From a virus (Duplodnaviria > Caudoviricetes): a stretch of 44,367 bases of DNA. The stretch lies in IMG/VR virus record IMGVR_UViG_3300044305_003822, positions 1 through 44,367 of that record, one strand, 5' to 3'. The translations under genes and the position numbers were made by a program. The notes under the pieces were generated by a model. It saw only the letters and a list, made by a program, of their open reading frames with translations, was not told the DNA's origin and did not search any database. Positions 11,556 through 28,646 of the stretch are shown one piece after another; the stretch's first letter is position 1; every line of letters starts with the position of its first letter.

Positions 11556-11804
11556 ATGAAAAAAATACTTTATTTTACAGCAGCATGGTGTGGTCCATGT
11601 AAAACACTAGGTCCTATAATGCAATCATTAAGTGGACAAATTAATTATGAAAAAGTAGACGTAGATAGTAGTAATGATTTATCTATACAATACGGGGTTA
11701 GAAATGTACCTTCTTTAATCTTAGTTGATGAAACAGGAGAAGTAAAAGGTAGATTAGTAGGAGTTCAATCTAAAGATGAAATATTAAATTTTTATAATGG
11801 GTAA
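11556..11804 (+). CDS. trxA: Thioredoxin
   Basis: FTAAWCGPCK active site; VRNVPSL cis-Pro loop. Confidence 0.93.
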   Translation: MKKILYFTAAWCGPCKTLGPIMQSLSGQINYEKVDVDSSNDLSIQYGVRNVPSLILVDETGEVKGRLVGVQSKDEILNFYNG

Positions 11805-12261
11805 ATTTCAATCAACAAAAATATTTGACGGATTTAGTACAGTATTTCGTCAATGGAAAGCAGAAGAAACTCACTGCAAATATCTTCATGGTTATGGAGT
11901 TTCATTTAAAGTATGGTTCGAAGGAGAACTAGATGAAAAAAATTGGGTTTGGGATTTTGGAGGAATGAAACGTGCCAAAACTCAAATTGATGGTATGTCC
12001 CCTAAAGAATGGATGGATCATATGTTTGATCATACTTTAGTAGTAGCAGAAGATGATCCATTTGTAGAATCATTTCAATCAATGGGAGTACATGGTGCAG
12101 CCCAAGTAAGAGTTATCCCAGCTGTTGGCGCCGAAAAATTTGCTGAATTTGTATTCAATAAATTAAATGAATTTGTAAAAACAGAAACTGAAGATAGAGT
12201 TAAAGTAGTAAGAGTAGAGTTTATGGAACACGGTAAAAATAGTGCTATTTATGAAGGTTAG
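11797..12261 (+). CDS. queD: 6-carboxy-5,6,7,8-tetrahydropterin synthase (PTPS family)
   Basis: HCKYLHGY, WVWDFG, FDHT, AEKFAE, E-x-x-KNSA; clustered with queC/queE/folE. Confidence 0.85.
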   Translation: MGKFQSTKIFDGFSTVFRQWKAEETHCKYLHGYGVSFKVWFEGELDEKNWVWDFGGMKRAKTQIDGMSPKEWMDHMFDHTLVVAEDDPFVESFQSMGVHGAAQVRVIPAVGAEKFAEFVFNKLNEFVKTETEDRVKVVRVEFMEHGKNSAIYEG

Positions 12262-13054
12262 TCATGAAGTTCCACGTTGTTTATTAAATAATAGTCGTGA
12301 ATTTAATGATTATGATTATTGTCTTCCTCATCTATTAGATAAAGATGAACACTATAAAAAATTCTTTTACGAATCTAAAAAACAAGGCCGTTATATAATA
12401 ATGGATAATTCACTTCATGAATTAGGAGAATCTTATGATTTTGAAAGATTACATTATTGGATTCAAGAATTAAAACCAAATGAGTTTATAGTACCTGATG
12501 TTTGGATGAAACATTCCCAAACAGCAGCTATGGCTAAGTATTGGAAACAATTTACATATCCTAAAGGTACTACTCCAGTAGCAGTTATTCAGGGAGAAGA
12601 TAAAAATGCTGCCTATTTATGTGCTGGATTATTAGTTGGTTTAGGTTATAAAAAATTATGTATTTCATATGGCGCAGATTGGTATAATGATTTTTTTCCT
12701 CACGTAAACGAAGATTTAGGAAAATCATTAGGTAGAATAAGATTTGTAAATGGTTTATTAAAATTAAAACAATATAAAGATATTCAATTCCATTTATTGG
12801 GATGTTCAGTACCCCAAGAATTTGGTTGGTATGATAATCATCCTCAAATAGAATCAATAGATACTTCAAATCCTATATTTGCAGCTTTAGAGAAAAATAT
12901 TTATAGCAGTAATGGATTAAACGAAAAACCAAAATTAAACATGAATACTTCTTTTAATATTGATGGAAGTAAAGTTAATTATAATAGTGTATTAAAAAAT
13001 ATTGAAATGTTTAGATCAATTAACGGATTAAAAAATTATGGCAGAAATAATTAG
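12251..13054 (+). CDS. Divergent TGT/DpdA-like TIM-barrel protein (candidate deazaguanine transglycosylase)
   Basis: IIMDNS, IVPD, VAVIQG, FHLLG, SIDTS occur in the order of TGT-family motifs; lies between queD and queC. ATG 12251 preferred over GTG 12242. Confidence 0.55.
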   Translation: MKVSHEVPRCLLNNSREFNDYDYCLPHLLDKDEHYKKFFYESKKQGRYIIMDNSLHELGESYDFERLHYWIQELKPNEFIVPDVWMKHSQTAAMAKYWKQFTYPKGTTPVAVIQGEDKNAAYLCAGLLVGLGYKKLCISYGADWYNDFFPHVNEDLGKSLGRIRFVNGLLKLKQYKDIQFHLLGCSVPQEFGWYDNHPQIESIDTSNPIFAALEKNIYSSNGLNEKPKLNMNTSFNIDGSKVNYNSVLKNIEMFRSINGLKNYGRNN

Positions 13055-13220
13055 ACATATTAGTGGAATGTGTGGTGAACATTTTCACCCAAACATTTGG
13101 CATCTTCTTGTAGGAGGATTTGGAATATCTACAATTTTATCTTATATTTTTTTATATATAAAATGTAGATTTAAAGCGTTTGCCTATACGCTTAATAATA
13201 CCTGGCAAAAAATTAAATAA
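13038..13220 (+). CDS. Small membrane protein
   Basis: 60 aa, His/Cys-rich N-terminus (HISGMCGEHFHP) plus one hydrophobic helix. Confidence 0.6.
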   Translation: MAEIIRHISGMCGEHFHPNIWHLLVGGFGISTILSYIFLYIKCRFKAFAYTLNNTWQKIK

Positions 13221-13228
13221 TAAATAAA

Positions 13229-14023
13229 ATGGCAAAAAATGTTGTAGTATCCTTATCTGGAGGGATGGATTCCTCTACTTTATTACTTAGATGTTTATCT
13301 GAGTATGATAATGTAACAGCTTTATCTTTTGATTATGGTCAAAAGCATAGAGTAGAACTTGAAAGAGCCCAACAATTAGTTGGTTATTTACTTCAAAAAG
13401 GTTTAAATGTAAATTACCAAGTAATTAAATTAGAAGGTTTACAAAACCTATTAAATTCGGCTTTAGTACAAGGTGGAAAAGATGTCCCAGAAGGACATTA
13501 TGAGCAAGATAATATGAAAGAAACTGTTGTTCCTAATAGAAATAAAATATTTGCTTCATTAACTCAAGCAGTAGCTTTATCTCAAGCTAATGCAAATGGA
13601 AATATTACTGATATAGCTTTAGGTATTCATGCTGGTGATCATGCTATTTATCCTGATTGCAGACAAGAATTTAGAGATGCAGATGATGCTGCCTTTAGAA
13701 TAGGAAACTGGGAAGCAGATAAAGTAGGTTATTTTACTCCATATTTAGAAACTGATAAATTAGGTATTTTGAAAGATGGAGAATTATTAGCAACCCATTT
13801 AAATTTAAATTTTGATGAAATATATAAAAGAACTAATACAAGTTATAAACCGTATCCTTCGGGAAATAGTGATTATAAAAGTGCCTCATCTGTGGAACGT
13901 ATTGAAGCGTTCATTGCTCTGGGTCGTAAAGATCCCGTACAATATGAAGATGACAGTGGAGAAGTGGAATGGAATACTGCGAAAACATATGTAGAAAAAG
14001 TATTAGCAGATTTTCCAGGATAA
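13229..14023 (+). CDS. queC: 7-cyano-7-deazaguanine synthase
   Basis: PP-loop SGGMDSST, FDYGQKH, VVPNRN, YPDCR; the canonical C-terminal Zn Cys cluster is replaced by non-Cys residues (TSYKP...SASSVER). Confidence 0.93.
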   Translation: MAKNVVVSLSGGMDSSTLLLRCLSEYDNVTALSFDYGQKHRVELERAQQLVGYLLQKGLNVNYQVIKLEGLQNLLNSALVQGGKDVPEGHYEQDNMKETVVPNRNKIFASLTQAVALSQANANGNITDIALGIHAGDHAIYPDCRQEFRDADDAAFRIGNWEADKVGYFTPYLETDKLGILKDGELLATHLNLNFDEIYKRTNTSYKPYPSGNSDYKSASSVERIEAFIALGRKDPVQYEDDSGEVEWNTAKTYVEKVLADFPG

Positions 14024-14041
14024 AAATCCTATTAAATTAAT

Positions 14042-14074
14042 AAAAGGTCATTTGGATACCCAAGTGGCCTTTTT
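14042..14074 (+). terminator. Intrinsic terminator hairpin after queC
   Basis: AAAAGGTCATTTGG-ATAC-CCAAGTGGCCTTTT, a 14-bp stem with two G-U pairs and a U-run. Confidence 0.7.
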
Positions 14075-14080
14075 TATATT
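14052..14080 (+). promoter_or_regulatory. Putative promoter TTGGAT-N17-TATATT for the tRNA locus
   Basis: 17-nt spacer; the -10 ends 7 nt before the tRNA 5' end. Confidence 0.7.
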
Positions 14081-14087
14081 CGTATAT

Positions 14088-14159
14088 CGCGACGTGGAGA
14101 AGTGGCATCTCGTTGGGCTCATAACCCAAAGGTCGTAGGTTCGAATCCTACCGTCGCAA
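14088..14159 (+). tRNA. tRNA-fMet (initiator, anticodon CAT)
   Basis: Full cloverleaf: CGCGACG/CGTCGCA with C1:A72 mismatch, anticodon arm TTGGG-CTCATAA-CCCAA (three G-C pairs), T arm GTAGG-TTCGAAT-CCTAC; CCA not encoded. Confidence 0.95.
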
Positions 14160-14166
14160 CTAAAAA

Positions 14167-14308
14167 TGCGAGATAGTTCAGTAGGTAGAACATTTGGATT
14201 GCTTGTTATCTAAAGCTAAGATAATAAGGCCAACTAAAAACAAAATTCGCGCGCAGAAAAGTAGTTTTTAGGTTCGGAAGGACGGGGGTTCGAGTCCCCC
14301 TCTCGTTG
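14167..14308 (+). ncRNA. tRNA-framed structured RNA with about 69 extra nt in the anticodon loop
   Basis: Acceptor TGCGAGA/TCTCGTT, D arm GTTC-AGTAGGTA-GAAC, variable AGGAC, T arm GGGGG-TTCGAGT-CCCCC; the insert has two hairpins. Confidence 0.7.
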
Positions 14309-14325
14309 CTAAGTAACCCTTTATA

Positions 14326-14333
14326 ATATTTAT
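14326..14333 (+). promoter_or_regulatory. ATATTTAT motif upstream of the tail-fibre-like gene
   Basis: Recurrent intergenic motif. Confidence 0.5.
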
Positions 14334-14358
14334 TAGTGTATTAAAAAACAGCTGTTAA

Positions 14359-15708
14359 ATGTCTACATTCACTAATAGGACAATAAAGTCTACCTATGAT
14401 CAGTTATTACACGTTGAAAACGAAAGAATCCAAAATGGATTAGGATATACTCGTCTAACTGCTTCTTTAGATTTATCCGGATCTACTGCACTAACAGGAT
14501 CTCTGCTTGTTAGTGGGGCAACTGCTTTTACAGGGTCTGTAAGTTTATCTGGAGATATGTACATAGACGGTACTGCTTCTATTTCTTATTTAGTAACTAC
14601 TTATGAATCTGCTTCCATTATATATGCTAGTGGTTCTACAAAATTCGGAGATTCTTTAGATGATACTCATGAATTTACTGGTAGTGTAACTATAACAGGT
14701 TCTTTAAATAGTCCTTATATTAGTGGTTCATTTAGTGGATCGTATCAAGGAGATGGTTCTGGTTTAACAGGAACTATAACTTCATCTCATGCAGTAACAG
14801 CAAGTCATGCAATTTCAGCTAGTTATGCTGTATCATCAAGTGAAGCAACATTGGCTACAAATGTATTTGTTCATCCTGATAATACAGATGCAAGTACAAA
14901 TTATGTTACATTTGGTCAAAGTGCATCTGGTAGTGCTAGAATTAATACTGATGATAGTTTTACTTATGTTCCTTCTACTAATACATTAACAGTTACAAAA
15001 GTTATAGGGGCATTAGAAGGAAATGCAACATCAGCGGATACTGCTTCTATAGTATTAGGTACAATTACAAGTGCTAGTTTTGCAGTTACAGCCTCATATG
15101 CTGAAAGTCAATCAGTAATAAATGTAACATCAGGTTCATTTGCCGCAAGTGGGGATGGTCCATTTACTGGTTCATTCTCTAGTAGTAGAGTTTCTATGTT
15201 ATCAGGATCATTTACAGGTTCTTCTACAGGTTCTTTTTCAGGATCATTTTCAGGTAGTGGGGATGCAATAAAAGGAGTAATATCATCTTCTTATGCAATA
15301 ACTGCTTCATTTGCTGAAAATGCAGGTGGTGGAACTTCAGGATTCCCACATACAGGATCAGCTGAGATAACTGGAGCATTAGCTGTTACAGGTGCTTTCT
15401 TTGCTACTAGTATAACAGAAACATCAGCATTAAGATATAAAGAAAACGTAACTGATTTGGATTCTGTATCTAGTTTATATAAATTACGTCCTGTTAAATT
15501 TAATTGGAAAGATTCAGGAAATGATGATATTGGATTAATAGCAGAAGAAGTAAATAAACATGTTCCTGAATTAGTACATCTTGATGAAGAGGGAGGAGCT
15601 GAAGGTATAAAATATTCTAAATTAACTTCTTTACTAATTAAAGCTGTACAGGATCAACAAAAAGAAATAAAGGATTTAAAATCTAGGTTAGATAATTTGG
15701 ATACTTAA
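14359..15708 (+). CDS. Ser/Thr/Gly-rich tail fibre/spike-like protein with C-terminal peptidase S74 intramolecular chaperone
   Basis: SGS/TGS and ASYA/ASFA repeats; TSALRYKENV...LRPVKFNWK...IGLIAEEV...YSKLTSLLIKAVQ plus coiled coil. Confidence 0.8.
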   Translation: MSTFTNRTIKSTYDQLLHVENERIQNGLGYTRLTASLDLSGSTALTGSLLVSGATAFTGSVSLSGDMYIDGTASISYLVTTYESASIIYASGSTKFGDSLDDTHEFTGSVTITGSLNSPYISGSFSGSYQGDGSGLTGTITSSHAVTASHAISASYAVSSSEATLATNVFVHPDNTDASTNYVTFGQSASGSARINTDDSFTYVPSTNTLTVTKVIGALEGNATSADTASIVLGTITSASFAVTASYAESQSVINVTSGSFAASGDGPFTGSFSSSRVSMLSGSFTGSSTGSFSGSFSGSGDAIKGVISSSYAITASFAENAGGGTSGFPHTGSAEITGALAVTGAFFATSITETSALRYKENVTDLDSVSSLYKLRPVKFNWKDSGNDDIGLIAEEVNKHVPELVHLDEEGGAEGIKYSKLTSLLIKAVQDQQKEIKDLKSRLDNLDT

Positions 15709-15725
15709 AAAAGTTATATTATATT
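15697..15725 (+). promoter_or_regulatory. Putative promoter TTGGAT-N17-TATATT for queE
   Basis: 17-nt spacer; recurrent motif. Confidence 0.7.
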
Positions 15726-15734
15726 GGAGCCCAA

Positions 15735-15774
15735 TTTGGTTCAAGTGACTGTAAAACCACTATAAAAAATTAAC
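15735..15774 (+). promoter_or_regulatory. PreQ1-I riboswitch-like element in the queE leader
   Basis: TGGTTC...CCACT-ATAAAAAATTAAC resembles the preQ1-I pattern GGUUC...stem-AUAAAAAACUAA and lies between the promoter and the queE ATG; the P1 stem is imperfect. Confidence 0.4.
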
Positions 15775-15778
15775 ATAT

Positions 15779-16552
15779 ATGATTAAACGACTAGAAGACT
15801 ATAATAAAGTCTTACCAATTCTTGAATTATACACCGCAGTACAAAGTGAAGGAAGCCGAGCAGGTTATCCTACTATTGTTGTAAGAACATCAGGTTGCAC
15901 CCATAGATGCTATTTTGGTGAAGGTGGATGGTGTGACTCTTGGTACACATCAATACACCCAGAAAAAGGTAAATACACTTTCAATGACATAATTGAAATG
16001 TATGATAAATACCCTCATATTAATGAAATGATGCTAACAGGAGGTTCTCCTACTATGCATCCTACTATAGTAAATGAATTAACACATTTAGCTCATGAAA
16101 GAGATATTTTTATTACTATTGAAACTGAAGGAAGTCATTTTCTCCAAACTGATTATCCTATTAATTTACTTAGTATTAGTCCTAAGTTTTCCAATAGTGT
16201 ACCTGTATTGGGAGTGGAAACACCTCAGGGCGCTATTACGGATGAAAAAATGGTCAAAAGACATAATAAATTTAGATTAAATAAAGATGCAATTAAAAAA
16301 AGTATTAATTATCATTCTGATTACCATATCAAGCCTGTCCTTGACAAAGAGCTTTCGATGGTTGAAGAAGTTGAAGAATTCATTAATGAATTAAATATTC
16401 CTAAATCAAAGGTATGGGCAATGCCCGCTGGAGATACTCGTGTTTCTTTAGTAGAAAGTTATCCTGTAGTTATGGATTTTGTAAGAGATAGAGGATGGAG
16501 ATTTACTGGACGTTCTCATATAATGGCTTTTGATACACAACGGGAAGTATAA
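15779..16552 (+). CDS. queE: 7-carboxy-7-deazaguanine synthase (radical SAM)
   Basis: ELYTAVQSEG...G.P...VRTSGCTHRC-(insert)-WCDS, LTGGSP, IETEGS, SISPK. Confidence 0.9.
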   Translation: MIKRLEDYNKVLPILELYTAVQSEGSRAGYPTIVVRTSGCTHRCYFGEGGWCDSWYTSIHPEKGKYTFNDIIEMYDKYPHINEMMLTGGSPTMHPTIVNELTHLAHERDIFITIETEGSHFLQTDYPINLLSISPKFSNSVPVLGVETPQGAITDEKMVKRHNKFRLNKDAIKKSINYHSDYHIKPVLDKELSMVEEVEEFINELNIPKSKVWAMPAGDTRVSLVESYPVVMDFVRDRGWRFTGRSHIMAFDTQREV

Positions 16553-16713
16553 TGAAAAATGTATGGAGGCTGTGGGCCAAGGCATTAGGAGAGAAAATAG
16601 GAAATTCAAAAGAAGCAGATAAGATAGCTATTATAAGAACTTTTATAGTGGCACAAGCTGTAGTATGTAATGCTTTTATAGTTTGGAATATCTTAAAACG
16701 TTGGAATGAATAA
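16552..16713 (+). CDS. Small membrane protein, 53 aa (not in ORF track)
   Basis: MKNVWRLWAKALGEKIG...IAIIRTFIVAQAVVCNAFIVWNILKRWNE; TAATG coupling with the queE stop. Confidence 0.7.
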   Translation: MKNVWRLWAKALGEKIGNSKEADKIAIIRTFIVAQAVVCNAFIVWNILKRWNE

Positions 16714-16846
16714 AGAAGAAGCATTAGAAGTTTTAGAAGAAATAAAAGAAAATGTAAATACATGTTGTGCCATTACTATGGATCCTGACGACGTGTTAGA
16801 TTTAATTGAAAAATTAGAAGAATATTTACAAAAAATTGGAGATTAA
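16706..16846 (+). CDS. Small acidic protein, 46 aa (not in ORF track)
   Basis: MNKEEALEVLEEIKENVNTCCAITMDPDDVLDLIEKLEEYLQKIGD; overlaps the previous stop. Confidence 0.65.
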   Translation: MNKEEALEVLEEIKENVNTCCAITMDPDDVLDLIEKLEEYLQKIGD

Positions 16847-16864
16847 ATTAAAATTTATTATATT
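16836..16864 (+). promoter_or_regulatory. Putative promoter TTGGAG-N17-TATATT for folE
   Basis: 17-nt spacer; recurrent motif. Confidence 0.65.
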
Positions 16865-16875
16865 AAGTTATATAC

Positions 16876-17571
16876 ATGAGTAAAAATAGAAAACAAGTTC
16901 ATAAAGAACTAGAAGTAGTACAAGAAGGTTTTGCAAATGGTGTTGCACCTGGTTATCCCCTTTCCCCTGTAGATCAACAAACAATGATTAATAATGCAGC
17001 TGAAAAGTATGGAGAATTTCTTACTGCTTTAGGATGTGATTGGAAAAATGATCCAAACTCCTCAGATACACCAATGCGTGTAGCAAAAGCTTACGTAAAA
17101 GATTTATGGAAAGGCAGATATAATGAAATGTCTGACATAACCTCATTTCCATCAGATGGTTATGATGGTATAGTAATAGAAAGAAACATTCCACTTACAT
17201 CAATGTGTTCTCACCACCACCAAACAATTCAAGGTGTAGTACATATAGGTTATGTTGTAGGTGAAGAAGGTAGAGTAATCGGTTTATCAAAATTAAATCG
17301 TATTGTAGAATTATTTGGTAGAAGAGGAGCAATTCAAGAACAATTAACCTCAGCTATCCATAATGCAGTAAATAAAATTTGTCAAAATAATAAAGGTGTT
17401 ATTGTAACTGTTGTAGGAACTCATAACTGTGTATCCTGTAGAGGTGTTAAACATCAAGGTGCTTCAATGGTTACCACTAAAGTATCAGGAGTATTTTTTG
17501 ATAATAAAAATGTAGCACGTAAAGAATTTTTTGATAGTGTAAAAATAAACAATGGAAACCATCCAGTATGA
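16876..17571 (+). CDS. folE: GTP cyclohydrolase I
   Basis: DTPMRVAK, SMCSHH, GLSKLNRIV, IQEQLT, HNCVSCRGV. Confidence 0.95.
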   Translation: MSKNRKQVHKELEVVQEGFANGVAPGYPLSPVDQQTMINNAAEKYGEFLTALGCDWKNDPNSSDTPMRVAKAYVKDLWKGRYNEMSDITSFPSDGYDGIVIERNIPLTSMCSHHHQTIQGVVHIGYVVGEEGRVIGLSKLNRIVELFGRRGAIQEQLTSAIHNAVNKICQNNKGVIVTVVGTHNCVSCRGVKHQGASMVTTKVSGVFFDNKNVARKEFFDSVKINNGNHPV

Positions 17572-20392: not shown

Positions 20393-22111
20393 ATGTATAA
20401 AAAAATTCATGAACATGGTACAGGAAAAGATAATGTACACGTAATACATTTATGGACAGATGAGGGTTATGAAAAAATAGAATGGAATAATTACGCTTAT
20501 AGAGAATGTTCTAAACAAGATTCTGAATTTACAGGATTAAAAAATGAACCGTTACGCCGTACTCACGATTACGATAGAAAAACCACTGGTTTACACTTCT
20601 CAGATATTGAAGCTTATCAAAAATTTCTTATAGAAAAATATGGTACTAATGACGAGCCCTCTAAATCACATAGAGAGGTTTTTTTTGATATTGAGTGTGA
20701 AATGGGTGGGGCATTAACTGAAGAATATATTTCTAATGCTCCTAAACCTATTACTTCTATTGCTTGGTATGATAAACAAGCTGATTGGTGGTCAATTGTT
20801 ATTTTAGATAAAAAAAATCAATTAAAACATACTAAAACTAAAAATAAAGAAATTATACCTCTAAAACATGAAGCTGATCTATTAGATACATTTTTAAATA
20901 AAATGGAAGAAATAGAACCTGATATTTTAATAGGTTATAATAGTGATTATTTTGATATTCCTTATCTATATCATAGAATGTGTATCGTTTTAGGAGAACA
21001 AGATGCAAAACGTTTATCTCCTATAGGTAAAATAAAATGTAAAAAAAATAATCAATATTGGTATAAAAAAGATAGGTTTGTTGATATAGCAGGAGTTGAA
21101 TCACTTGATTATATGAGATTACATAAAAAATATAATTGGGAAGATGAACCATCTTGGAAATTAGATGCTATAGGAGAAAAATATGTTGGTATAAATAAAA
21201 TAGAATATGAAGGTTCATTAGATAGATTATTTGAAGAAGATATACATAAATTTATTCAATATAACTTTGTTGATGTTGAAATATTAGTTGAATTAGATAA
21301 AAAACTACAATATATAGATTTAACAAAAAATCTAGCCCATAAAGGTAAAATCAAATATAGTGAAGTGTATGCATCATCCAAGATCCAAGATGGAGCCATC
21401 TCAGCTTATTTACTATCTCAAAAAATAATACCACCAAACCGTCCTTCGGGAGTAGGTAAATTAAACTATGCTGGTGGTTATTTATTCTGCCCTAAAGCAG
21501 GTTTATACAAATATATGTTTGATGAAGATTTAACTTCACTATATCCTTCAATTATAATGACTTTAAATATTGGAAGAGAAACTATAGTAGGTAAAATTAT
21601 AGATGAAAATGATCGTAATAATAGATTAGGTTTAAATGATTTAAAAGAAAAAGATGGTGAAGAAGAAGTTATCATTATGAACCCTAATAAAAAATCAGAT
21701 AATGAAAGAAGAGTATCTATAGAAAAATTAATTCAAATGGTTGAAAAAAATAATTGGTCTGTAGCAGCTAATGGTACATTTTTTAAAACAGATAAAAAAT
21801 CTGTATTATCTATTATTTTAGATAAATGGTTTAAGGAAAGGGAAATATATAAAAATAGAATGAAACACTGTTATCAAAAAGGTGATACTGAAGGTGGAGC
21901 CAAAAATCATCTATTACAATATACTATGAAAATTTTATTAAATTCATTATATGGTGCTACTGCCTTACCATCATTTAGGTATGGTTTACCTGAATCTATA
22001 TTAAGTGAATCAATTACTTTATCAGGTTGGCGCATTATTCAAGAATCCGCACTTGCTGCTAATCGCCATATGAATAAAGTTTTAAGAAATGAAATTGAAT
22101 TAAAAATATGA
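20393..22111 (+). CDS. polB: Family-B DNA polymerase, N-terminal part (3'-5' exonuclease, motifs A and B)
   Basis: ExoI FFDIECE, ExoII GYNSDYFDIPYL, ExoIII YNFVDV, motif A DLTSLYPSII, motif B KILLNSLYG; motif C absent. Confidence 0.92.
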   Translation: MYKKIHEHGTGKDNVHVIHLWTDEGYEKIEWNNYAYRECSKQDSEFTGLKNEPLRRTHDYDRKTTGLHFSDIEAYQKFLIEKYGTNDEPSKSHREVFFDIECEMGGALTEEYISNAPKPITSIAWYDKQADWWSIVILDKKNQLKHTKTKNKEIIPLKHEADLLDTFLNKMEEIEPDILIGYNSDYFDIPYLYHRMCIVLGEQDAKRLSPIGKIKCKKNNQYWYKKDRFVDIAGVESLDYMRLHKKYNWEDEPSWKLDAIGEKYVGINKIEYEGSLDRLFEEDIHKFIQYNFVDVEILVELDKKLQYIDLTKNLAHKGKIKYSEVYASSKIQDGAISAYLLSQKIIPPNRPSGVGKLNYAGGYLFCPKAGLYKYMFDEDLTSLYPSIIMTLNIGRETIVGKIIDENDRNNRLGLNDLKEKDGEEEVIIMNPNKKSDNERRVSIEKLIQMVEKNNWSVAANGTFFKTDKKSVLSIILDKWFKEREIYKNRMKHCYQKGDTEGGAKNHLLQYTMKILLNSLYGATALPSFRYGLPESILSESITLSGWRIIQESALAANRHMNKVLRNEIELKI

Positions 22112-22455
22112 AATACGAAGTAGAAAGTAGACCTTGGGGTATGTATGAAGTTTTATTAGATTCTGATGAATGTAAAGTAAAACGAATTACTGTTGCTCCT
22201 GGTCAAAAATTATCTTATCAATATCATCATAAAAGACAGGAACAATGGACTGTAGTTAAAGGTAATTTAACTATTATTTTAGATGATGATAAAGTATTTA
22301 GATCACCTGGAGAATCAATAAAAATTCCTTTAGGAGCTAGGCATAGGGCCTGGAATGAAACTGATGAATTAGTACAATTTATCGAAGTCCAAACCGGAAC
22401 TTATTTTGGTGAGGATGACATAATTAGAATAGAAGACGATTATAATAGAGAATAA
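22108..22455 (+). CDS. Mannose-6-phosphate isomerase type II C-terminal cupin-like protein
   Basis: RPWG, KVKRITVAPGQKLSYQYHHKRQEQW, IEVQTGTYFGEDDIIRIEDDY. Confidence 0.9.
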   Translation: MKYEVESRPWGMYEVLLDSDECKVKRITVAPGQKLSYQYHHKRQEQWTVVKGNLTIILDDDKVFRSPGESIKIPLGARHRAWNETDELVQFIEVQTGTYFGEDDIIRIEDDYNRE

Positions 22456-22456
22456 T

Positions 22457-22717
22457 ATGGCATTAACACCACAAGCATTAAGACAAGGAGTTCACGTTTT
22501 AATAGATGAAGAACTTGCAACGAAAGAAGAACTCATAGAAATGAGCAAAGAATGGAGCGAAAAAAGAGAAGTTTTTTTTCGTAAAATGCTCCAACAAGGA
22601 GGGCGTTTTAAATTTGATAATAAACAATTTGAAGTTAAATTGAGACAAAAATTACTCAATAGTCAAGGGGAAAAAGATGGTGGAATCATTCAAATCCCTG
22701 GTGATAGTAGGTTTTAA
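22457..22717 (+). CDS. Hypothetical protein inserted between the polB halves
   Basis: 86-aa ORF whose stop overlaps the next ATG (TAATG). Confidence 0.7.
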   Translation: MALTPQALRQGVHVLIDEELATKEELIEMSKEWSEKREVFFRKMLQQGGRFKFDNKQFEVKLRQKLLNSQGEKDGGIIQIPGDSRF

Positions 22718-23640
22718 TGAAACATTTAGAAGATACACCCTGGTTTATATGTGATGAAGGCGATACTAACCTATGTGCCTATGTGGATACAGATTCAAAT
22801 TATTTTAATGCTGAACCACTTTTAAATCATTTATATCCTAATTTTAAAGATTTATCTAACGAAGAAAAAGATTCTAAACTTGAAGGATTAGCAATTGCTT
22901 ATCAGGATATAATTAATGATAGTTACAATAATCTTACTATTAATTGTTTTAATGTTAAATCTCATAGATTAGAGATGAAAACAGAATGTGTTATTCGTTC
23001 TGCCTATTTTAGAGCCCATAGACGTTACGCTCAGTGGATTACAAAACAAGAAGGTATTACTAAAGAAACCTTAGATGTAAAAGGTTTAGAATATAAAAAA
23101 TCTAATTTTCCTAAAGTATTTGGTAATTTTTTTAGAAAAGCACTTGAAGATGTTTTAAAAGGTACACCACAAAATGAAATTGATAGACGTATTCTAGATT
23201 TTAAAAAGAAAATATTAACAGACATGCCTATCGGGGAATTAGGTAATCCCACTAGTGTAAAAACATTAAATAAATATATTGAACGTAAACCTGTTGGAGG
23301 AGAAGTCTTCACTATAATACGTAAAGGAGCACCTGCTGCTGTTAGAGCTGCTATCAAATATAATGATTTATTAAAATATTGGAAATTAGATACTAAACAT
23401 AGTCCTATAGTTCAAGGTGATAAAATTAAATGGATTTATATGAAAAAAAATCCATACAATATTGAAGCATTAGCTTATCTTGATTTTGATATGCCTGATA
23501 AAATAAAAGATCTATTAGAACGTTTTGCAGATAAAGAAAAAGTATTTGATACTATTTTGTTAAATAAACTAGAAGGATTCTATAGTGATTTAGAATGGGA
23601 ATTAAATACAAATCCTTATATTAATCAATTTTTTATATGA
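22717..23640 (+). CDS. polB: Family-B DNA polymerase, C-terminal part (motif C, thumb)
   Basis: YVDTDSNYF (motif C), RRYA, LDVKGLE, GDKIKWIY. Confidence 0.9.
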   Translation: MKHLEDTPWFICDEGDTNLCAYVDTDSNYFNAEPLLNHLYPNFKDLSNEEKDSKLEGLAIAYQDIINDSYNNLTINCFNVKSHRLEMKTECVIRSAYFRAHRRYAQWITKQEGITKETLDVKGLEYKKSNFPKVFGNFFRKALEDVLKGTPQNEIDRRILDFKKKILTDMPIGELGNPTSVKTLNKYIERKPVGGEVFTIIRKGAPAAVRAAIKYNDLLKYWKLDTKHSPIVQGDKIKWIYMKKNPYNIEALAYLDFDMPDKIKDLLERFADKEKVFDTILLNKLEGFYSDLEWELNTNPYINQFFI

Positions 23641-24772: not shown

Positions 24773-25475
24773 AAATATAGAAAAATATTTCTTAGGGGGC
24801 CTAGTTAGTGGTGTAGTATGGAAATTAGATGGTAATCAAGTAACTATTAATTTTAGTACTGAAACTAAAGATGCTGCTGGTATATTAACTTTTAATTTAC
24901 CACTTCCCGAAGGACAAGTAGGTATTTACAATACGGATTCATTACTAAGATTATTAAGTATAACTAATGAAGATTTACAATTAGAATTACAATCAGATAA
25001 TACAGGTATAGTTAAAAGATTAAAAATACTTGATAATAAATTTGATTTAGATTATAATTTAAGTGATCCTAACATAATCGAGGTACCTAAAACACCACTT
25101 GAAGAAAATTATAATTTTAATTTTCACTTTAGTATTGATGATGAGTTTATTAATGGTTTCTTAAAAGCACATAATGCATTAGAAAAAATTAAAGATTTTA
25201 CTCTTAATACAGCAACAACTAAACAAGATGAAAATGTAGTTGAAATTATATTAGGAGAACGAACACAATATTCAAATAAAGTAAAATTTACAGAACCGTG
25301 TGAATTTACATCACACAGTGATATTATACCATTCTCAGCCATAGCTTTTAGAGAAATACTATTAGCAAATAAAGGTACAGAAGGTAAAGTATCTGTTGAT
25401 AATAATGGAATAGCAAAAATAGAATTTATAAATGATGAAAGTTCTGTTAAATATTTTATTATAAGACAAGAATAG
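24750..25475 (+). CDS. Sliding clamp (gp45/PCNA-like)
   Basis: About 240 aa, alternating beta/alpha pattern, GIYNT..LL.LL and Y.L.DP..I linker; replication context with the clamp loader downstream; GTG start. Confidence 0.65.
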   Translation: MKKNYIVENIEKYFLGGLVSGVVWKLDGNQVTINFSTETKDAAGILTFNLPLPEGQVGIYNTDSLLRLLSITNEDLQLELQSDNTGIVKRLKILDNKFDLDYNLSDPNIIEVPKTPLEENYNFNFHFSIDDEFINGFLKAHNALEKIKDFTLNTATTKQDENVVEIILGERTQYSNKVKFTEPCEFTSHSDIIPFSAIAFREILLANKGTEGKVSVDNNGIAKIEFINDESSVKYFIIRQE

Positions 25476-25478
25476 TAT

Positions 25479-25486
25479 ATATTTAT
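25479..25486 (+). promoter_or_regulatory. ATATTTAT motif upstream of hsp20
   Basis: Recurrent intergenic motif. Confidence 0.5.
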
Positions 25487-25491
25487 AATAA

Positions 25492-25552
25492 ATGACTGAG
25501 ACTCTAGGGCGAGCAGTTATGTTTTAAGTTTAACCCGAGTAGCTTAGGCGCT
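25492..25552 (+). promoter_or_regulatory. Structured 5' leader of hsp20 (two hairpins)
   Basis: ATGACTG-aga-CTC-TAGGGC-GAG-CAGTTAT hairpin, and a second hairpin GAGT-a-GC-TTAG-GC-GCTC; GC-rich against an AT-rich background. Confidence 0.6.
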
Positions 25553-25569
25553 CACAAATATAAAATGAT

Positions 25570-25998
25570 ATGAGTACATTAGAATTGTTCGAAAGAACAC
25601 AGTTCGAAAGAACACCGTTTGACATCCTATTTAGGAATTTTTTCCAAGACCAAGGGCAGTACGTGCCAATGGTAGAAAAAAACAAAGTTTCCCACCCCGT
25701 AGATCTTTATGAAACAGAAAAAGGCTTAAATTTTGATATAGCCTGCACTGGTATCTCTAAAGATGAAATTGAAATTCAACTCAATGGGGATATATTAAGA
25801 GTAAATTACGACCGAAATGAAGAAGACGATAAAGAGTATATCTATAAAGGTATAGCTAAACGATCTTTTAATTTAGGTTGGAAAATTAATTCACGTTTCG
25901 ACGTATCCAAATCCTCAGCAGGGTTCAATGATGGTTTATTAACTATTACTGTTCCTTATGCAAAAGGTTCAGAATTAAAAACCCTGAAAATTAAGTAA
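25570..25998 (+). CDS. hsp20: Small heat-shock protein Hsp20/alpha-crystallin
   Basis: HPVDLYE, YIYKGIAKRSF, DGLLTITVP, C-terminal LKIK. Confidence 0.92.
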   Translation: MSTLELFERTQFERTPFDILFRNFFQDQGQYVPMVEKNKVSHPVDLYETEKGLNFDIACTGISKDEIEIQLNGDILRVNYDRNEEDDKEYIYKGIAKRSFNLGWKINSRFDVSKSSAGFNDGLLTITVPYAKGSELKTLKIK

Positions 25999-26019
25999 AA
26001 AGCTCCGCCCTAGAGCTTT
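25999..26019 (+). other. 3' hairpin after hsp20 whose loop is complementary to the 5' leader loop
   Basis: AAAGCTC-CGCCCTA-GAGCTTT; loop GCCCTA is the reverse complement of TAGGGC at 25505-25510. Confidence 0.6.
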
Positions 26020-26046
26020 GGTTATCATAAAAAATTTTCGTATATT
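26018..26046 (+). promoter_or_regulatory. Putative promoter TTGGTT-N17-TATATT for the groES/groEL unit
   Basis: 17-nt spacer; recurrent motif. Confidence 0.7.
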
Positions 26047-26072
26047 ATACCGTAATAAAAAAAATTAGTTAT

Positions 26073-26354: not shown

Positions 26355-26467
26355 GTAGCTCAAGAACCTCAAGATCTTGGGGAAGAAAATCTAGAAGATT
26401 TAGTCCTACAAAATTAACAACCAATAAAGGGAATAAAATAAACGCTAAAAAAAATAGAAAAAAATGA
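26351..26467 (+). CDS. Very basic 38-aa peptide (not in ORF track)
   Basis: MSSSRTSRSWGRKSRRFSPTKLTTNKGNKINAKKNRKK; ATGA overlaps at both ends. Confidence 0.55.
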   Translation: MSSSRTSRSWGRKSRRFSPTKLTTNKGNKINAKKNRKK

Positions 26468-26757
26468 GTAAATTAAAACCTATTAATGGAAATGTTATCC
26501 TTCGTCCTGTAGAGGAACAAGAAATGATGTCTGGTAACATTATTATCCCTGATATGGGAAAAGAAAAACCTGAAATGGGAGAAATAGTTGCTATTTCTCA
26601 AATATATAATTTTAATAAGGGTGAATATGTCCCTACTGTTTTAAAAGTAGGAATGAAAGTTTTAATCCCTAAATTAGGGGCACAATCAGTTACTGTAGAG
26701 GGAGAAGAATTCTACATTACAGCCCAAAGTTCAATTTTATCAATTTTAGAAGATTAA
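26464..26757 (+). CDS. groES: Co-chaperonin GroES
   Basis: LKPINGNVIL, SGNIIIPD..KEKP..GEIVA, LKVGMKV; adjacent to groEL. Confidence 0.92.
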   Translation: MSKLKPINGNVILRPVEEQEMMSGNIIIPDMGKEKPEMGEIVAISQIYNFNKGEYVPTVLKVGMKVLIPKLGAQSVTVEGEEFYITAQSSILSILED

Positions 26758-26758
26758 C

Positions 26759-28402
26759 ATGACAGAAACAAGTTTTGGAAAAGAATTAAAAAACAGACTT
26801 TTGGATGGAGTTCAAAAGTTGAATAATAGTGTGGCTTCCACTTTAGGACCCGCTGGTAGAACCGTTTTGATTAAAGATCAAATGGGAGAAATTAAAGTTA
26901 CTAAAGATGGAGTAACTGTAGCAAGAGCTTTTAAAGAATTAGAAGATCAAACAGAATCTATAGGAGCTGAATTAGCTAAAAAAGTAGCTATAAAATCTGC
27001 TAATGAAGTAGGAGATGGAACAACTACTTCAACAGTATTAGCTACTACTATTTTAGAGGAAGGAATTAAACAAATTAATGATGGTTCTAATCCTGTAGAT
27101 ATTAAAAAAGGTATTGATGAAGCTACTTCTGCTGTTGTAGAAGAATTAAAAAAACTATCAACTGAAATTACGGATGATGCACAAATTAAAGAAGTTGCAA
27201 CAATATCAGGTAATAATGATCCCGAGATAGGAAATTTAATTGCTACAGCTTTAGATAAAGTAGGCAGAGATGGTGTTGTAGCTATAGAAGAATCAAAAAC
27301 AGGTGATACTTCATTAGAAATAGTAGAGGGAATGCAATTTGAAAGAGGATACAAATCTCCATATTTTGTAACAGATAATAATACAATGTCAGCTGTTTTA
27401 AATGATCCCTATATTTTAATTTATGATGGACGTATAACTCAAGCTTCTGAATTACTTAATGTTTTAAATAAAGTAAGTGGAGAAACTAAACCTTTATTAA
27501 TAGTTGCAGAAGATATTGATGGGGAAGCATTAGCAACCCTTATTGTAAATAAAATGAGAGGTACTATTGATGTAGTTGCTGTAAAAGCTCCTGATTTTGG
27601 AGATAGAAGAACAATGGCTTTAGAAGATTTAGCTACAGTAACAGGTGGTCAAGTAATTTCTAAAGATAAAGGACATAAGTTAGATAAATTACAACCTCTT
27701 CAATACAGTGAATTATTAGGTAGAGCTAGAACAGTAAATGTAACTAAAGAAAAAACTACTGTTGTAGATGGTAAAGGAACTGAAGACGCAATATCTCAAA
27801 AATCTTTAGAAATAAAAGTTCAATTAGATAAAGCATCATCTGCATTTGAAAAAGAAAAATTACAAGACAGACTAGGTAAACTAGTTGGTGGAGTAGCTAT
27901 TATCAATGTAGGTGGTAATTCTGAAATTGAAATTAAAGAAAAGAAAGATAGAGTAGAAGATGCTTTATTTGCTACTAAAGCTGCTTTAGATGAAGGTATC
28001 ATAGTAGGTGGGGGAACTGCCTTCTTACAAGCTTCAAAAAGATTAGATAAAATGATATCTAAAAATAGTGATGTTATGATTGGTAAAAATATTGTAAAAC
28101 AAGCTATTCAAGAACCATTTATCAAAATATTAACTAATGCTGGACATGATGATAATGATGTAAGATTTGCATCTTATAACTTATTAAATGGAAAAGGTAA
28201 TTCTTGGAAAGGTTTAGATTATAAAAATCTAGAAATAGTAGATTTTAAAGAATTAGGAATAATCGATCCTAAAAAAGTTACTCGTATTGCATTAGAAAAT
28301 GCTGCTTCAATTGCTGGAACTATCCTTACCACTGAATCAGTTATATATGAAAAAAATGAGGATAAAGAAGAAACACCAAACCCTATGGCGGGAATGATGT
28401 AA
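26759..28402 (+). CDS. groEL: Chaperonin GroEL
   Basis: TLGPAGR, TKDGVTVA, GDGTTTSTVLA, EGMQFERGY, KAPDFGDRR, GIIDP.KVTR.ALENA, GMM tail. Confidence 0.97.
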   Translation: MTETSFGKELKNRLLDGVQKLNNSVASTLGPAGRTVLIKDQMGEIKVTKDGVTVARAFKELEDQTESIGAELAKKVAIKSANEVGDGTTTSTVLATTILEEGIKQINDGSNPVDIKKGIDEATSAVVEELKKLSTEITDDAQIKEVATISGNNDPEIGNLIATALDKVGRDGVVAIEESKTGDTSLEIVEGMQFERGYKSPYFVTDNNTMSAVLNDPYILIYDGRITQASELLNVLNKVSGETKPLLIVAEDIDGEALATLIVNKMRGTIDVVAVKAPDFGDRRTMALEDLATVTGGQVISKDKGHKLDKLQPLQYSELLGRARTVNVTKEKTTVVDGKGTEDAISQKSLEIKVQLDKASSAFEKEKLQDRLGKLVGGVAIINVGGNSEIEIKEKKDRVEDALFATKAALDEGIIVGGGTAFLQASKRLDKMISKNSDVMIGKNIVKQAIQEPFIKILTNAGHDDNDVRFASYNLLNGKGNSWKGLDYKNLEIVDFKELGIIDPKKVTRIALENAASIAGTILTTESVIYEKNEDKEETPNPMAGMM

Positions 28403-28598: not shown

Positions 28599-28606
28599 AT
28601 ATTTAT
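28599..28606 (+). promoter_or_regulatory. ATATTTAT motif upstream of the tRNA fragment and lipoprotein
   Basis: Recurrent intergenic motif. Confidence 0.5.
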
Positions 28607-28608
28607 CT

Positions 28609-28646
28609 AAAAGAGGTTGAGGGTTCGATTCCCTCTTCCTTTTCTA
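28609..28646 (+). pseudogene. Isolated 3' half of a tRNA (variable loop, T arm, acceptor 3' strand)
   Basis: AGGTT-GAGGG-TTCGATT-CCCTC-TTCCTTT-T-CTA; no D arm or anticodon arm upstream. Confidence 0.6.

Follow-up and report, generated by a model that had tools for sequence, protein, structure and literature searches.

The hsp20 gene of this phage poses the question of why a single gene should be bracketed by two hairpins with complementary loops, and of what pairing across the whole gene would do to its message. The DNA analysed (the window; 44,367 nucleotides) is a 44-kb fragment of the genome of a large marine phage, 27% complete, and the description of it as AT-rich is borne out by a GC content of 29%. 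Besides hsp20, it encodes a split family-B polymerase, a sliding clamp, a clamp loader, groES and groEL, and no close cultured phage is found among the collection compared (best matches 30–39%). Shine–Dalgarno (SD)-like motifs are located upstream of only one of 45 window ORFs, a scarcity that fits Bacteroidota according to published abstracts. As the promoter-like boxes also resemble the Bacteroidota −33/−7 promoter consensus given in passages of PMC6847099 (TTTG/TANNTTTG), we infer a Bacteroidota host. Elsewhere in the window, queD, queC, queE and GTP cyclohydrolase genes form a 7-deazaguanine pathway set (11797–17571), and the two polymerase ORFs are separated by a cupin-like gene and a further ORF of 86 aa (20393–23640). 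A small ORF behind groEL is followed by a tRNA T-arm-like hairpin and then a T run (28600–28643); this element gives a weak tRNA-Sec match (E 0.035) and is terminator-like in the terminator scan.

Table 1. Features of the hsp20 locus in window coordinates
Feature	Position	Strand	Basis
Promoter-like box, Bacteroidota −7-like, last base A not G	25478–25485	+	box in 107 of 109 loci
5' arm of long-range helix (core 25502–25511)	25492–25514	+	folding, conservation, covariation
5' hairpin, predicted transient; loop presents purine-rich seed	25492–25520	+	folding, conservation
Hairpin 2 (4 bp, bulged A at 25541, 2 bp, UUAG loop); candidate Hsp20 operator	25537–25553	+	conservation, covariation
hsp20 ORF (142 aa)	25570–25998	+	PHROG 432 (E 6e-18); PF00011
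3' hairpin; present in window, not in all lineages	25999–26019	+	folding; outside terminator list
3' arm of long-range helix (core 26006–26015)	26002–26025	+	folding, conservation, covariation
Downstream promoter-like site (TTTG 26017–26020 in 3' arm, −7-like box 26041–26048, 20 nt apart)	26017–26048	+	inferred
groES and groEL, downstream context	26464–28402	+	profile annotation

Both hairpins fold at the positions given by the original prediction (−6.6 kcal/mol for the 5' and −6.3 kcal/mol for the 3' hairpin). Their loops (25505–25510 and 26006–26012) are reverse complements, and the pairing extends to 13 bp with one bulge between arms that are 487 nt apart (about 490 had been claimed). Nine further pairs, overlooked at first, lie beyond one A·C mismatch (25492–25500 with 26017–26025), and the predicted helix between the two arms has 22 bp and −32.2 kcal/mol. 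It belongs to the minimum-energy and the centroid folds of the whole region, and none of 100 shuffles of 25470–26040 folds as well (z −4.0). The 10-mer of the 5' core and its exact complement in the 3' core each have one copy in the window, and the flank duplex of hsp20 is the strongest of all 51 window ORFs (runner-up −21.6). Of 24 RNA runs, all in the form of contigs, four were compared. RNA-library contigs cover the leader and the ORF (25514–25725 and 25502–25693, with 25562–25999 in a relative); they begin at varied places, carry no information on RNA ends, strand or level, and have no back-joint among the joints listed for them.

The arms were compared over 164 phage and metagenome loci, of which 156, including the window, have enough flank and reduce to 113 distinct arm pairs. 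Duplexes of cognate arms average −29.7 kcal/mol compared to −18.0 for non-cognate arms, and 110 of the 113 pairs are stronger than all 50 of their shuffles. In a sliding-window scan, 101 of 102 hsp20 loci reach −20, as against 5 of 275 neighbouring other genes, a control in which intergenic length is unmatched to the hsp20 loci. The core could be anchored in 109 arm pairs, leaving out L081, L104, L112 and L131. Eight core columns are paired in 106–109 of these, and four columns show double changes. Several core pairs do not vary within the 109 but do so once the 12 loci found via hairpin 2 (see below) are taken in. The helix measures 16–27 bp over the loci (median 21), with a longest unbroken run of median 12. 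An unguided MAFFT alignment of 31 rows places 98.4% of cells in pairs, with double changes at 9 of 16 pairs, and slid controls on the same alignment give 31–50%. The 109 rows are not independent; the 92 of them placed on a groES/EL tree fall into three well-supported main clades and 12 core types. Independent contrasts on this tree give matched changes in 7 of 7 cases at one column (p 0.016) and in 3 of 3, 5 of 5 and 4 of 6 at the others, none being opposite. Counts of changes on a tree of hsp20 itself were not relied on, being inflated because the coding region appears to be exchanged between clades. A search with hairpin 2 alone, which makes no use of the arms, located 12 new distinct loci; all 12 have the helix, with several new core sequences. 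In the aligned flanks of related phages the loop complementarity is thus not lost and is accompanied by compensatory changes, as expected of the proposed long-range interaction closing the hsp20 mRNA. We regard it as nearly certain that an RNA helix at the hsp20 flanks exists and is selected.

The arm types agree with the groES/EL tree and are dispersed over that of hsp20, which suggests that the hsp20 coding region has repeatedly been swapped between phage clades inside the arms. Such movement is the one point in favour of reading the arms as inverted repeats that act in the DNA, as recombination or protein-binding sites, and not in the RNA. We consider this the least credible of all readings: G·U makes up 11% of the helix pairs, the plus-strand duplex is more stable than that of the minus strand in 103 of 113 arm pairs, the arms are imperfect and turn over in sequence, and the 5' arm starts where transcription is predicted to begin. 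In one locus (L105, 1620–2140), arms of different types pair poorly (−15.6), which suggests a natural recombinant or an assembly chimera. Among the outgroups compared with shuffles (6 cyanophage loci and 14 of 42 bacterial hsp20 loci), none is clearly above them, the best being L214 (−19.5, shuffled −14.5 ± 1.8). The strong raw flank energies of GC-rich bacteria disappear against shuffles, and a diffuse flank duplex of Escherichia coli ibpA, for which there was no control, was excluded from the comparison.

The locus had been described as a pair of hairpins that meet through their loops. Counts for the hairpins refer to 108 loci, L105 being omitted. At the 5' arm, 107 of the 108 can form a hairpin around the seed. 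Because most of its 3' strand is not part of the long helix, this hairpin can be tested separately; its mean is −4.8, compared to −1.1 after shuffling of that strand (p ≤ 0.05 in 76 of 108) and −0.7 after swapping it between clades. Folding of the nascent leaders gives the 5' hairpin P ≥ 0.5 in 74 of the 108 and leaves the seed open in 96 of them. The window is an exception, as its nascent leader past about 25575 is predicted to pair competitively with hairpin 2 (P of 0.12 for the 5' hairpin and of 0.03 for hairpin 2). The 3' hairpin passes the strand-shuffle test in 55 of 108 loci. It is found in 31 of 32 loci of the window's clade and is absent from 30 of 108, including all 19 of one core type. 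When full transcripts were folded (every fourth of the 108), the extended duplex had P ≥ 0.9 in 27 of 27, in a model that is unable to score pseudoknotted kisses. The 5' half of the hairpin pair therefore stands across lineages, but the 3' half does not, and the predicted end state is an extended duplex. The conserved design is, on these predictions, a seed-presenting 5' hairpin and a 3' target; obligatory kissing is unsupported because the 3' hairpin is absent in 30 loci, and a true loop–loop kiss would be an optional step, possible in some lineages including that of the window. U-turn (YUNR) loops are a feature of antisense RNAs. A U-turn reading of the present loops was rejected, since the CCCC core type has no YUNR on its 5' side.

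The promoter-like box upstream of the gene lies 24–26 nt before the core C in 92 of the 109 loci, and the first paired base is a median of 5 nt downstream of the box (range 0–10, n = 107). This would match the box-to-start spacing of 4–5 nt mapped in Flavobacterium, as given in passages of PMC6847099, and transcription in the window would accordingly start at 25490–25491, just ahead of the 5' arm. The A that ends the window box replaces a near-invariant G of the host consensus, so a phage-specific promoter is possible. Of the 109 loci, 91 have a second box downstream of the 3' arm, with a TTG 19–20 nt ahead of it in 65 of the 91, and groES is present in the flank fetched around hsp20 in 105 of 109. 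The TTG overlaps the outer 3' arm and therefore explains part of the sequence conservation of that arm.

These features bear on whether the helix controls transcription, either as a terminator made of the GC core and a U-rich run with the whole gene as its loop, or as an antiterminator in which the local 3' hairpin is opened by the 5' arm so that transcription continues into groES–groEL. A U-rich run does follow the core (T in 61–95 of 109 loci at 8 of positions 9–18), no ordinary terminator is evident in the 30 loci that lack a local 3' hairpin, and in folding the 3' hairpin loses out to the long helix. The TTG overlap weakens the U-tract argument, however, as its G breaks the run, and the run is also explained by pairing with the A-rich transcript start. 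Terminator stems need less than the approximately 21 bp found here. The terminator scan, which requires a GC stem and then 5 or more T in 8, lists none at the 3' hairpin, and the box of their own that downstream genes have after the 3' arm weakens the idea of a read-through switch toward groES/groEL. We judge control of termination in either form to be distinctly unlikely.

The long helix stops 55 nt upstream of the start codon, and SD-like motifs are present in none of the 113 hsp20 leaders. Openness of the start region is predicted as 0.57 without and 0.54 with the helix. An RNA thermometer, in which heating melts the pairing and frees translation, had been among the functions suggested, and the pairing does flank a heat-shock gene. 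Hairpin 2 is weak, and its predicted probability in the window is 0.98 at 4 °C but drops to 0.38 at 37 °C. The long helix itself has P 1.0 at 4–60 °C and 0.99 at 80 °C, there is no SD for it to hide, and openness of the start region, 0.56 at 4 °C, rises only to 0.65 at 37 °C. These values make a thermosensor highly improbable. A ROSE-type thermometer was rejected on prediction, with no SD masking, no physiological melting and no ROSE or other relevant Rfam match in the window or 16 related loci. Just before the gene, an upstream ATG opens a Met-Ile-stop frame (25565–25573) whose stop overlaps the hsp20 start, and in 104 of 113 loci the start is immediately preceded by ATGAT; the overlap is possibly a coupling device or a start context. 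Within the N-terminus of hsp20, a 15-nt tandem duplication (25587–25616, two FERT units) is shared only by the closest relatives.

The absence of SD motifs would also leave room for other aids to initiation, such as a closed loop in which the helix sets the stop codon beside hairpin 2 and the start codon, allowing ribosomes to be reused by the message they have just translated. The core starts 8–9 nt past the stop codon in 84 of 109 loci, roughly where a ribosome at termination would have its edge. One clade departs from this spacing, with its core 18–21 nt after the stop (18 of 109), and no bacterial precedent was found in the literature examined. We hold the closed loop to be very doubtful.

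Our predictions are best accommodated by an end clamp, in which a helix of about 21 bp would tie the first bases of the message to those just past the stop codon and shield both ends from decay. We favour this function tentatively over any other single one, because the helix reaches the predicted 5' end, does not involve the start region, is longer than terminator stems and has a tested precedent in hbs of Bacillus subtilis. Of the functions first suggested, a stability or processing device would fit best. Once transcription had started, the 5' arm would first form its weak hairpin with the purine-rich seed left open in the loop. The emerging 3' arm would then pair with the seed, via a kiss where a 3' hairpin exists, and zip into the long helix. 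The start region would be untouched, and hairpin 2 is predicted to remain folded before the start codon.

The passages on hbs (PMC5737220) describe how the 5' UTR pairs with the 3' UTR in a way that limits cleavage and slows decay. As in hbs, the phage pairing lies within one mRNA, spans the whole ORF and leaves the start region uncovered, and the complementary UTR segments at the hsp20 flanks covary. By analogy, the phage clamp may resemble hbs in its effect on nuclease attack and decay. The hbs pairing has, in those passages, 14 bp and is described for one species, whereas the phage helix has about 21 bp reaching the predicted 5' end, family-wide covariation and a seed-presenting 5' hairpin. 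The folding order predicted for 74 of 108 leaders, though not for that of the window, resembles that of the Helicobacter pylori type I toxin mRNA aapA3 (passages of PMC6733600), in which a transient 5' hairpin gives way to an end-to-end helix, formed after transcription, that yields a stable full-length RNA. The aapA3 structures hide the SD and silence a toxin; the phage has no SD, its helix lies well away from the start codon, and what it encloses is a chaperone gene. In icaR of Staphylococcus aureus (passages of PMC3868564), intramolecular UTR–UTR pairing is also linked to RNase III but blocks the SD, unlike the phage helix, which avoids the start region. The phage helix would thus be akin to hbs in its action and to type I toxin mRNAs in its predicted order of folding, and is a member of neither. 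The original prediction knew of no described element of this layout. None was found in Rfam or in the literature searched, a search that had most subscription journals and supplements (often with motif catalogues) outside it. Functional 5'–3' UTR pairing in bacterial-type mRNAs is known from few single genes, and phage hsp20 is a family-wide covarying case. Its natural matched arm variants are ready-made compensatory mutants, and they make testable the effect of pairing both ends on a translated mRNA.

The same dimensions suit an RNase III substrate as well as a clamp. Both strands of the helix would then be cut, which would release hsp20 from longer transcripts as a one-gene message or set off its decay. 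In B. subtilis, RNase III cuts duplexes of 10–36 bp with up to 505 nt between the sites (passages of PMC11780869), and the phage values are 16–27 bp and, in the window, 487 nt. The icaR pairing likewise creates an RNase III substrate (PMC3868564, in the part cited above), a Bacteroides control genome encodes RNase III, and the core pairs are conserved. The invariance of several core pairs among the 109 loci in fact hints at sequence-specific recognition rather than passive clamping. On the other side, the helix is broken about 10–12 bp from its inner end in the window and in most relatives, and the pairing that adjoins the B. subtilis cut sites exceeds 90% in the passages of PMC11780869. With a promoter-like box of its own at the 5' arm, the message would need no excision on the 5' side. 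The B. subtilis cuts have been mapped (PMC11780869, same passages), whereas the phage helix is known by prediction and brackets exactly one gene, from the predicted start to past the stop. There is no RNase III gene in the window, a 27%-complete fragment. Cleavage is somewhat unlikely on balance; it is compatible with residual clamping by the GC-rich core, and the two could coexist.

Between the helix and the gene, hairpin 2 ends 14–16 nt upstream of the ATG and is found in 110 of 113 phage leaders. All 24 scored variants are paired at the five columns with compensatory changes (3 of 27 variants were missed by the anchor), and all 39 matches of its pattern in viral contigs precede an hsp20-type start, one of them truncated. 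The leaders of E. coli ibpA and ibpB have a hairpin of the same shape, with a stem, a bulged purine, 2 bp and a tetraloop. A shape descriptor, drawn up after viewing these hairpins, matches 110 of the 113 phage leaders and both of those from E. coli, along with 3 of 6 from cyanophages and 12 of 47 from proteobacteria, with shuffled means of 0.0–0.4 and no match before 44 other window genes. IbpA represses its own translation and requires the leader stem-loops, according to passages of PMC10474464 and PMC10410725. The same passages give R93, the aromatic residue 34 and cationic residues 97 and 98 as needed for repression, alanine at R97/K98 abolishing it, and do not name the bulged hairpin as the binding site. 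The equivalent of R93 is R in all 113 phage proteins, and that of Y34 is Y in 77 and F in 22 (14 not anchored). At the equivalents of R97 and K98, all 113 have L/F and G, respectively, which are not cationic. The phage leader also differs from those of ibpA and ibpB in having no SD-masking hairpin. As the phage proteins keep R93 and the aromatic residue but lack the cationic pair, hairpin 2 as an Hsp20 operator is only a lead. By analogy with IbpA, it may bind Hsp20 and bring about self-repression, and the end clamp would then preserve a ribosome-free message.

The full combination, in which phage Hsp20 silences its own message via the bulged hairpin and a clamp nucleated by the seed loop keeps the silent message intact, is speculative and in our view unlikely. 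If true, it would be a stored-message device for hosts without SD control, in which unfolded proteins arising in infection release a ready pool of chaperone mRNA. The bulged-purine hairpin of E. coli ibpA/ibpB and cyanophage hsp20 would then be the general RNA site of small heat-shock protein feedback. The RNA shape recognised by self-repressing small heat-shock proteins is a second question that phage hsp20 makes testable. Bulged-G hairpins occur in cyanophage and proteobacterial hsp20/ibp leaders (L216, L218–L221, L207, L210, L179, L214 and L222). Rfam has no match for them in the leaders scanned, which do not include L222. They usually precede a YGCU motif and an SD.
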